Positions 1 through 20,181 of a DNA stretch of 32,000 nt are shown here, in pieces. Below the pieces are notes generated by a model. The model had not been told where the DNA came from. It saw nothing but the letters and a program-made list of their open reading frames with translations, and made no database searches. Origin of the DNA: Candidatus Thorarchaeota archaeon. Its GTDB lineage: Archaea; Asgardarchaeota; Thorarchaeia; Thorarchaeales; Thorarchaeaceae. Every line of letters starts with the position of its first letter. The stretch's first letter is position 1. A program made the position numbers and the translations under genes. The stretch is from the NCBI GenBank assembly GCA_008080745.1, contig SHMX01000011.1, forward strand, positions 1-32,000, read 5' to 3'.

Positions 1-93
1 TCCCTGACCAGGACAGAGTTTCACCCAGTACCGTTGCCTGGGAGGACACCGCTCTGATGTCCAAGTTTGTCCATAAAACAATGAACGGTTTGA
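1..93. other. End of a putative structured non-coding element (runs off the left edge), related to the element at 19494-19810
   Basis: TGTCCA-agtt-TGTCCA at 58-73, then 10 nt and AACGGTT. TGACCAG (5-11) and GAGGAC (42-47) occur in the same order, and TGACCAG at nearly the same distance from the tandem, as in 19721-19807. Hairpin CCCAG/CTGGG at 24-42. GC is 35/60 in 1-60 versus 20/60 in 61-120. Confidence 0.5.
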
Positions 94-19037: not shown

Positions 19038-19337
19038 CTAAACTCTCTTGTACTCTTTTATTTTCATCATTATTTTGTAACCATCAATTCCGATAGCACG
19101 CAAATAGGTATCAAGAGGAAGGATATCGCCATCTTCTGAACTAATACCATCAAGATATTCAGTTACAACTTGAGTGACTTCACGAATCAGTCGTTTTTCT
19201 TTTCCAAACAGTTTTGCAAAGAAGCCCCAATCAAATATTTTCATGTGTTTTTTCAGAGAAGATGAGTCTTGATCGGTCTTCTTCTGAACTTCATTGATGA
19301 TATAATCGAGAAGATCTTGTTTAGATGACATTGTCAA
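19038..19337 (-). CDS. Hypothetical helical protein (99 aa)
   Basis: Protein-like composition; sits between ahcY and a long intergenic region. No recognised motif. Confidence 0.65.
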   Translation of the reverse strand: MTMSSKQDLLDYIINEVQKKTDQDSSSLKKHMKIFDWGFFAKLFGKEKRLIREVTQVVTEYLDGISSEDGDILPLDTYLRAIGIDGYKIMMKIKEYKRV

Positions 19338-19493
19338 TGGGCATCACCGAATATTCAGACCATTCAAAACGATATAAGGAAACGTTGTTTCAAAGATTTC
19401 AAAAATAATTGTAAGTGTCAGCGTGGAACCGCTTGCCACCCAATCAAATGATAACTATGAAAGAACTCCTTCGATGGATTGTACCATAGGGTA

Positions 19494-19810
19494 TGCAACA
19501 GCTGATCAAAACGTGGACAAGCTTGGACATATATCAATTAACTCTTTGATATATTGACCTGTATACGGTATCCCCTGCAGCTCGGCTATCGGGAGTGTAT
19601 ACCTTGACCATCAGAAGAGGGGGGTTATTAGGAATCATGTCTAAGATAAGTATGCCGCCGTGAGTTGCACGGAGGCATAAAATGCCTGTGAAGAGGAAGT
19701 AAGACATCATCAGTCCTCTGTGACCAGTGATGCAGCCTCGATGAAGCAGGAACCAGACAGCAAATGAGGACTCCTGTCCACCTTTGTCCAAGTTCTGTGC
19801 AACGGCTGCA
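19494..19810. ncRNA. Putative structured ncRNA or MITE-like element bounded by imperfect inverted repeats
   Basis: 36-nt inverted repeats at 19494-19529 and 19775-19810 (26/36 complementary; TG...CA ends), each containing TGGACA-N4-TGGACA. Internal helices: 19529-37/19546-54, 19561-66/19597-602, 19651-62/19668-79, 19637-42/19702-07, 19712-18/19766-72. Interior 19561-19800 is 50% GC. Confidence 0.55.
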
Positions 19811-19929
19811 AATACAACAACACTCAGTATGCTGGTTACGATGCTCTCCATCATAGAAGAATATCAAAATGTCAACGAGCAAAGCACTTTTGAGGGAGAG
19901 AATAAAATATAGTTAATGAGGTTAGAAAT

Positions 19930-20181
19930 TTGGGAGAAAAGAAGATTGGTGAAATCTCACAATATTTTCATAACATAAGTGTAGCAGCGATTATACTCGA
20001 AGACGAACTGAAAGAAGGCGACCAAATACATATCAAAGGTACAACCACCGACTTAGTCCAAGAGGTTAAGTCCATGGAAATTGATCGGGAATCCGTTGAA
20101 AAAGGTACAAAGGGACAAGAGATAGCAATCAAAGTCAAAGATAGAGTTCGTGAGAATGATGAGGTATATCTCGTCGAATAG
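19930..20181 (+). CDS. Small beta-barrel protein (translation elongation factor-like / peptidase U32 C-terminal-like domain)
   Basis: KKIGEISQYF...ISVAAI...LKEGDQIHIKG...QEVKSMEID...GQEIAIKV...VRENDEVY pattern; TTG start with a GAGGT RBS. Confidence 0.8.
   Translation: MGEKKIGEISQYFHNISVAAIILEDELKEGDQIHIKGTTTDLVQEVKSMEIDRESVEKGTKGQEIAIKVKDRVRENDEVYLVE

Follow-up and report, generated by a model that had tools for sequence, protein, structure and literature searches.

The window analyzed here, a 32,000-nucleotide stretch of DNA from a Candidatus Thorarchaeota archaeon, contains on its plus strand, at positions 19489 to 19805, a complete miniature element that is very probably a non-autonomous, internally deleted, MITE-like member of the IS607 family carrying an orphan TnpB guide-RNA scaffold. 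The 317-bp element is gene-less and consists, from left to right, of a left end, a remnant of the 5' end of tnpA (approximately 65 bp), a junction, a complete omegaRNA scaffold of approximately 156 nt, and a right end. The element adds a further member to a known type and does not represent a new class of RNA. A preliminary description of this DNA had proposed either a structured noncoding RNA (ncRNA) or a non-autonomous mobile element with TG...CA ends and internal transposase-binding repeats of the IS3/IS21 type; of the latter option, the non-autonomous element and its internal repeats were borne out by the analysis, and the IS3/IS21 assignment and the TG...CA ends were not.

The borders at 19489 and 19805 are given by an alignment of 12 copies, by a motif scan, and by the loose ends of metagenome contigs, all of which displace the borders proposed previously (19494 and 19810). 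Most of the sequence features already reported for the region were recovered. These include the 36-nt imperfect inverted repeat (19494-19529 and 19775-19810), in which 26 of 36 positions (72%) are complementary, and the tandem motifs with a 10-bp period, with TGGACA at 19514-19519 and 19524-19529 and TGTCCA at 19775-19780 and 19785-19790. A palindrome at 19529-19554 and a hairpin at 19651-19679 were likewise both found in the sequence. The intergenic gap, given earlier as 590 bp, measures approximately 592 bp between open reading frames (ORFs) at 19038-19337 (minus strand) and 19930-20181 (plus strand), and the GC fraction is 0.49 to 0.51 inside the element versus 0.34 to 0.37 in the flanking DNA. 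The TG...CA ends, in contrast, do not exist, because the right-hand CTGCA (19806-19810) is host flank that differs in every other copy; the left-hand TGCA lies 5 nt inside the element.

A search of the genome assembly (3.16 Mb in 19 contigs) for homologues, one of the checks that had been proposed, identified the element as a dispersed repeat with 12 near-full copies and a number of shorter derivatives. The near-full copies are 77 to 100% identical to each other and 85 to 96% identical to the window copy. When they are aligned together with their flanks, the flanks of all copies are unrelated, and every copy begins with GGGTATGCAACAGCTG and terminates with ...CTGTGCAACGG. Two copies, at C2:279776-280091 and C10:10387-10703, are 100% identical over 317 bp and have different flanks, which points to recent movement. 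The shorter members of the family include a 353-bp derivative (C1:555590-555942) that joins the left end and the first approximately 40 nt of tnpB to the scaffold and right end, a 146-bp derivative (C5:43641-43786) in which 26 nt of the left end are joined to 127 nt of the right end, and a fragment at C2:539333 to approximately 539640 with a right end and no recognizable left end. Contigs C14, C15, C17, C18, and C19 of the assembly have a GC content of 62 to 65%, compared to 39 to 43% in the rest of the assembly, and are probably contamination of the metagenome-assembled genome.

The same borders were seen in contigs, rather than raw reads, from two marine-sediment DNA runs. The metagenome contigs break at 19487-19489 and at 19805-19806, and the summed contig depth of the element is 15 to 30 times that of its flanks in the two runs. 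These contigs also include a form that skips 19513-19683 and corresponds to the internal-deletion derivative of C5:43641-43786. No contig of the two runs spans the element from end to end, so that no empty-site allele was seen. The element is, however, absent from the orthologous intergenic region of a same-genus genome, in which the matched blocks are separated by approximately 97 bp compared to 490 bp in the window. The intergenic DNA of the two genomes is too diverged (76 to 77% identity) for the empty junction to be aligned to the base.

The termini of the copies carry the hallmarks of IS607-type transposition. In the motif scan, the left border is GGG in 15 of 16 genuine left ends (AGG in the remaining one) and is preceded by a purine in 15 of 16. 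Of the 16 right ends, 15 terminate in GG (AG in one) and 14 are followed by a pyrimidine; the full tail AACGG is present in 14 of the 16. A GG dinucleotide is therefore found at both termini and in the target, the window copy included. In that copy, the left junction GGG (19489-19491, plus strand) comprises the predicted GG crossover dinucleotide and the preceding G and, together with A19488, forms a TAM-like (R)GGG comparable to the TGGG target and TAM of the CboIStron IS607 element. The right terminal GG (19804-19805, plus strand) is the predicted crossover dinucleotide at the other end, where the scaffold ends in ...ACGG. No target-site duplication was found, as the flanks of the 12 aligned copies share nothing beyond GG.

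The inverted repeat is subterminal and lies at unequal distances from the two ends: the paired TGGACA motifs begin 25 nt from the left end, and the paired TGTCCA motifs end 15 nt from the right end. This layout agrees with published IS607-family ends, which have a subterminal imperfect inverted repeat with unequal end distances (PMC6188088) and contain short repeated motifs bound by TnpA dimers (PMC6188088). The left repeats, TGGACA-N4-TGGACA (19514-19529, plus strand), are present in all of the copies and in the tnpA- and tnpB-bearing relatives, and by analogy they may be binding sites for a TnpA with a MerR-type helix-turn-helix (HTH). The right repeats, TGTCCA-N4-TGTCCA (19775-19790, plus strand), are inverted copies of the left motif and occur also at the right ends of IS607 elements encoding large TnpB-like proteins and at window positions 58 to 73. 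The paired site at 58 to 73 is explained by another IS607 mini element of a different type, the right end of which occupies window positions 1 to 88 and is cut off by the start of the contig (...GATGTCCAAGTTTGTCCATAAAACAATGAACGG). This second element matches gene-less elements of approximately 190 bp at C4:186179-186368 and C4:200860-201049, the right ends of which resemble those of the large-TnpB IS607 elements.

These termini also bear on the alternatives in which the region is either a minus-strand protein gene (ORF 19534-19854, 106 amino acids) or a MITE of the DDE type whose TG...CA ends would be like those of IS3 and IS21. The ORF is open in the window copy, and TGCA strings are present, as such readings would have it. 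However, the ORF starts in the host flank and has no Pfam match, and of the 11 other copies at least 8 have stop codons or frameshifts in it, so that it failed the coding test set for it in the preliminary description, and a DDE-type element is contradicted by a right-hand TGCA that is host DNA and by the lack of a target duplication. We regard this pair of alternatives as extremely improbable. A classical DDE-derived MITE was rejected for the additional reason that the termini are not inverted relative to each other (GGGTATGC... versus ...GCAACGG).

The two halves of the element derive from different genes of an IS607-type transposon. The left 134 nt (19489-19622) could be aligned locally without gaps to the left end and the first approximately 65 nt of tnpA of the IS607-like element on C1 (C1:303315-303170), and also, more weakly, to a copy on C16. 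The C1 tnpA ORF encodes MerR-type HTH and Resolvase domains recognized by Pfam; together with the left-end alignment, these domains identify a serine-recombinase TnpA in the autonomous parent, as is characteristic of IS607. Within the left half, the tnpA 5'-end remnant extends from 19559 to 19622 (plus strand), with its start codon now CTG (19559-19561). Directly upstream of the former start is the AT-rich palindrome ATATATCAA...TTGATATAT (19529-19554, plus strand), the position of which corresponds to that of the DNA preceding the tnpA ATG in C1:303315-303170; it is possibly a TATA-like tnpA promoter or an operator. On the right side, 153 bp match, with 86% identity, the last approximately 115 nt of tnpB together with the adjoining right end at C2:236825-236977. 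The parent tnpB element (C2:235582-236977) is approximately 1.4 kb in length and has the same left end as the mini element. With a left half derived from tnpA and a right half derived from tnpB, the mini element thus arose by internal deletion from a tnpA-tnpB element of the IS607 type.

The TnpB encoded by the parent element (C2:235701-236936; 411 amino acids) appears from its sequence to be intact. It contains HTH_OrfB_IS605, OrfB_IS605, and Cas12f1-like TNB domains, together with the RuvC motifs GVDLG, IEDL, and DRDHNAA and two CxxC pairs, and it matches both the TnpB of ISDra2 (E value of 2e-75) and that of the IS607 element ISFba1 (8IAZ; 2e-54). Its closest relatives in public genomes are found in Thorarchaeota (60 to 66% identity), followed by Hermodarchaeota and other Asgard metagenome-assembled genomes and then by several bacterial phyla. 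Among 80 related loci, at least 36 have a serine-recombinase tnpA immediately upstream of tnpB. Both of the serine-recombinase genes in the assembly are truncated, to 124 and approximately 150 amino acids, so that mobilization may have been lost or an active gene may be unassembled; an active transposase would be one that is unassembled, lost very recently, or supplied from elsewhere.

Related elements in the assembly encode much larger proteins. An IS607-like element at C1:300752-303315 (minus strand) contains a truncated serine recombinase followed by a TnpB-like protein, and a similar arrangement is divided between the tail of C16 and the head of C5. The TnpB-like proteins of these elements are 719 to 735 amino acids long, and only the C-terminal TNB domain is recognized (Pfam E value of 4e-13), which leaves an N-terminal part of approximately 600 amino acids with no recognized domain; the best match to a solved structure has an E value of approximately 0.01. 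They are large, divergent TnpB/Cas12-like proteins.

A palindrome-associated element of the IS200/IS605 type, moved by a Y1 (HUH) transposase, would be in keeping with the stronger match of TnpB to ISDra2 (2e-75) than to ISFba1 (2e-54) among solved structures and with the overlap of the scaffold with the tnpB coding end, as in IS605. This origin is nonetheless very unlikely, since a search for Y1 transposases (PF01797) gave no match in the 98%-complete genome, the left end carries a serine-recombinase gene remnant, the TnpB lineage has a serine-recombinase tnpA upstream in the 36 or more of 80 loci mentioned above, and the termini are GG/GG with no conserved target motif of 4 to 5 nt except GGG. 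An IS200/IS605 PATE was rejected on the same lack of a Y1 partner and on left flanks that are variable apart from the purine before GGG.

The IS607 reading also accounts for the structured part of the element. Judged from its homology to the tnpB 3' end and from covariation, the right half (19650-19805, plus strand) is a TnpB omegaRNA/reRNA scaffold with a RAGATH-18-like core. The structured ncRNA of the preliminary description is thus retained for this half only and belongs to the known TnpB omegaRNA/reRNA class; neither its novelty nor the closure of the molecule by a terminal helix held. The scaffold helices, all on the plus strand, are P1 (19654-19676), P2 (19693-19696 with 19736-19739), P3 (19753-19758 with 19792-19798), P4 (19761-19764 with 19783-19786), and P5 (19768-19771 with 19776-19779), to which are added a variable hairpin (19705-19732) and a pairing of the 3' tail ACGG (19802-19805) with CCUG.U (19686-19689). 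At two positions in these helices, the window copy differs from all of the metagenome contigs of the family: at 19753 a C replaces A, and the outermost P3 pair is thereby broken, and at 19763 an A replaces G, with pairing retained.

Covariation, proposed earlier as a check, was examined in an alignment (A1) of 36 copies of the scaffold region from this genome and five related genera. Across seven helices, 95.5% of the cells are paired and 13 pairs show compensatory changes, compared to only 34 to 47% pairing in slid controls. The long variable hairpin is preserved despite quite different sequences. Pairing of CCUG.U with the terminal ACGG is found in 98.6% of cells versus 89.4% for an alternative, RAGATH-like closing stem, and it may be a pseudoknot or belong to an alternative fold. 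When A1 was used to build a covariance model (R1), the model matched all 73 of the 73 distant tnpB loci, and every match lies at the gene's 3' end. In an alignment of these loci (A2), which are an independent set but were aligned by fitting to R1 itself, a fact that bears on the pairing figures, 28 of 33 pairs are compensatory and 94% of cells are paired versus 36 to 49% in slid controls. P4 and P5 overlap the TGTCCA repeats, and part of the covariation of these two helices could therefore reflect coevolving protein-binding sites and not RNA pairing. As expected of an omegaRNA, the fold is conserved with compensatory changes in both A1 and A2, and the scaffold of the parent element (C2:236822-236978) overlaps the last approximately 115 nt of tnpB and ends at the right border. 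The modeled fold was observed at tnpB 3' ends in Asgard archaea, Chloroflexota, Bacillota, Actinomycetota, Chlamydiota, and others (73 loci).

The helices listed in the preliminary description fared unequally by the same measure, with covariation supporting the hairpin at 19651-19679 and none of the others. The proposed GTATAC/TCCC helix (19561-19602) lies inside the variable tnpA remnant and is not preserved in other copies, the upstream ATGTCT arm of the ATGTCT/AGACAT helix is missing from the tnpB-bearing element C2:235582-236977, and AGTCCTC/GAGGACT competes with helices that covary. A free-standing, novel ncRNA of approximately 317 nt, with ends that close a long terminal helix, would be consistent with a hairpin-rich interior and with minimum free energy (MFE) folds in which both arms are paired. 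It is scarcely credible, however, in view of whole-element MFE z-scores against shuffled sequences that are weak and do not identify a strand (-1.7 for plus and -2.2 for minus), a left half that is a tnpA remnant and varies between copies, and covariation that is confined to the right half. In addition, the same arms are approximately 1.3 kb apart in the tnpB-bearing relative, and one internal-deletion derivative keeps just the ends. The inverted repeat is a feature of the DNA and not the closing helix of an RNA.

Searches against Rfam agree with a guide-RNA scaffold in the right half. As the preliminary description had anticipated, the window showed no signal for signal recognition particle (SRP) RNA or RNase P, even at E values up to 10, and no family matched anywhere in the window at its gathering score. 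In E-value mode, RAGATH-18 (RF03064) matched 19685-19752 (plus strand) with 25.3 bits and an E value of 0.022, below the gathering score of 44.9; the matched segment is the core CCUGUG-AAG...CGAUGAAGCAGGAA. RF03064 was also found at the homologous place in 7 other loci, with 25.6 to 29.7 bits, and was the sole hit of its type there. Other matches obtained in E-value mode, to the SBWMV2 pseudoknot and the MS2 hairpin, were dismissed as chance. The reRNAs that direct the TnpB nucleases of IS607 elements are built around a RAGATH-18 core, with a conserved segment on its 5' side and another on its 3' side (Ren et al. 2024, PMC11061315). The element has the conserved nucleotides of the closing stem and of the loop, and scores of 25 to 30 bits fall short of formal membership (44.9); on sequence grounds, the core works like that of RAGATH-18 yet is not filed as a member of the Rfam family. 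With only 25 to 30 bits obtained by the RAGATH-18 model on this TnpB lineage, Rfam underdetects the lineage.

The mode of action of such an element can be proposed by analogy to characterized relatives. In the IS607 element of Clostridium botulinum, TnpA_S inserts at TGGG with a strict requirement for GG and excises without a scar (Zedaveinyte et al.). The omegaRNA scaffold of that element ends in ...UCGG, whereas its TnpB needs a TGGG TAM (Zedaveinyte et al.), and position -3 tells the empty donor joint from the occupied site (Zedaveinyte et al.). In the Thorarchaeota genome, a serine-recombinase TnpA supplied in trans would bind the TGGACA repeats, pair the ends, and recombine them at the GG dinucleotide, giving insertion at (R)GGG sites and scarless excision. 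Transcription would run rightward, with the former tnpA promoter in the area of the AT-rich palindrome (19529-19554) as its probable start, and the transcript would be trimmed to the scaffold and approximately 16 to 20 nt of right flank beginning at 19806. The one intact TnpB, of 411 amino acids (C2:235701-236936), could load this RNA in trans, and its cleavage of the empty donor joint (...AGGG + CTGCAAATAC...) would lead to restoration of the element by homologous recombination. Under this mechanism, the occupied site would be protected because the scaffold ends in ACGG rather than GGG.

The guide segment of a TnpB omegaRNA is formed by the 16 to 20 nt adjoining the right end (PMC11061315). 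By position, the predicted guide of the window copy is the host flank CTGCAAATACAACAACACTC (19806-19825, plus strand). This sequence matches only its own flank in the genome, the next best match being 17 of 18 nt at C7:133004, which lacks an upstream GGG. No secondary targets of the 16 predicted guides were found in the genome beyond their own flanks.

The R1 model detected 16 scaffolds in the genome, with scores of 118 to 172 bits, of which just one adjoins an intact cognate tnpB. An element of the same origin might instead be an inert relic, that is, a decayed mini-IS607 that is immobile and has a scaffold that is no longer transcribed or used. Such decay would fit the truncation of both tnpA genes in the assembly, the divergence of the copies to as low as 77% pairwise identity, and the broken terminal pair of P3 in the window copy. 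We consider it unlikely, as the pair of 100% identical copies with different flanks implies recent movement, all 16 scaffolds retain scores of 118 to 172 bits with the structure model, the TnpB with its GVDLG, IEDL, DRDHNAA, and CxxC motifs is apparently intact, and divergence in the scaffold does not exceed that in other parts of the element (mean identity of 0.92 versus 0.89). The 15 orphan scaffolds of these mini-IS607 elements might conceivably constitute a dispersed, trans-acting guide library for the single TnpB, possibly co-opted for host functions, although this proposal is a speculative one to which we attach a low probability. Such a library, if true, would be a natural arrangement of many guides and one nuclease, and co-option would extend its role beyond maintenance of the element to genome surveillance or gene regulation at insertion sites.

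With its borders corrected, an element missed by gene callers and by Rfam can be annotated (the two transposon ends, the remnant of tnpA, the scaffold of the guide RNA, and the predicted guide). The analysis also documents, with 16 scaffolds and one cognate TnpB, an IS607 counterpart of guide-RNA-bearing PATEs in an Asgard archaeon. With R1, the guide-RNA scaffold of one TnpB lineage can be recognized in Asgard archaea, Chloroflexota, Bacillota, Chlamydiota, and other groups, and the model could improve annotation, as the RAGATH-18 model of Rfam detects this lineage below threshold only. The element leaves the current understanding of IS607 and TnpB biology unchanged.

The element shares with IS607 of Helicobacter pylori, IS1535, ISC1926, and the mini-IS of CboIStron the GG at the termini and target and the lack of a target-site duplication. 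As in the IS607 family generally, there is no true terminal inverted repeat, and the imperfect repeat that is present is subterminal and includes short repeated motifs (PMC6188088); related elements encode a TnpA with MerR-HTH and resolvase-type domains, with tnpB and a guide RNA at the right end. The distinction between a TAM of xGGG and a scaffold end of xCGG in IS607 and CboIStron follows the same logic as (R)GGG versus ACGG here. Unlike these relatives, the element has no genes within its 317 bp, is archaeal (Asgard), and is found in an assembly without an intact TnpA. It is also distinct from them in consisting of a tnpA remnant fused to a tnpB 3' end. The group I intron of CboIStron is absent.

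The scaffold most closely parallels the ISFba1 reRNA (RF03064; PDB 8IAZ). Both contain a core of CCUGUG-(G/A)AG...CGAUGAAGCAGGAA with a long variable stem-loop; a hairpin precedes this core on the 5' side, and a structured domain of approximately 55 nt follows it on the 3' side and ends at the transposon border. Both have as a partner an IS607 TnpB of approximately 400 amino acids. The scaffold is shorter than the ISFba1 reRNA (approximately 156 versus 187 nt), and it extends into the coding end of tnpB in the parent element; the reRNA of ISFba1, in contrast, lies apart from the ORF. TAMs of AGGAG and GAGGG have been reported for the ISFba1 system, compared to the (R)GGG predicted here. The ISDra2 TnpB-omegaRNA complex (PDB 8H1J and 8EXA), which contains the closest solved TnpB homologue (2e-75), is similar in having an omegaRNA that overlaps the 3' end of tnpB and takes its guide from the right-hand flank. 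ISDra2, however, uses a Y1 transposase, single-stranded DNA, a TTGAT target, and hairpin ends, in contrast to the serine-recombinase-type ends and tnpA remnant of the element described here.

In Geobacillus, gene-less IS605 elements known as PATEs encode omegaRNAs that are served in trans by TnpB (Meers et al. 2023). Like PATEs, the Thorarchaeota element has lost its genes while keeping both ends and a guide-RNA scaffold, and it is present in many copies for few nuclease or transposase genes. PATEs belong to the IS200/IS605 family with its Y1 transposases; the element in the window is their IS607 counterpart in an archaeon.
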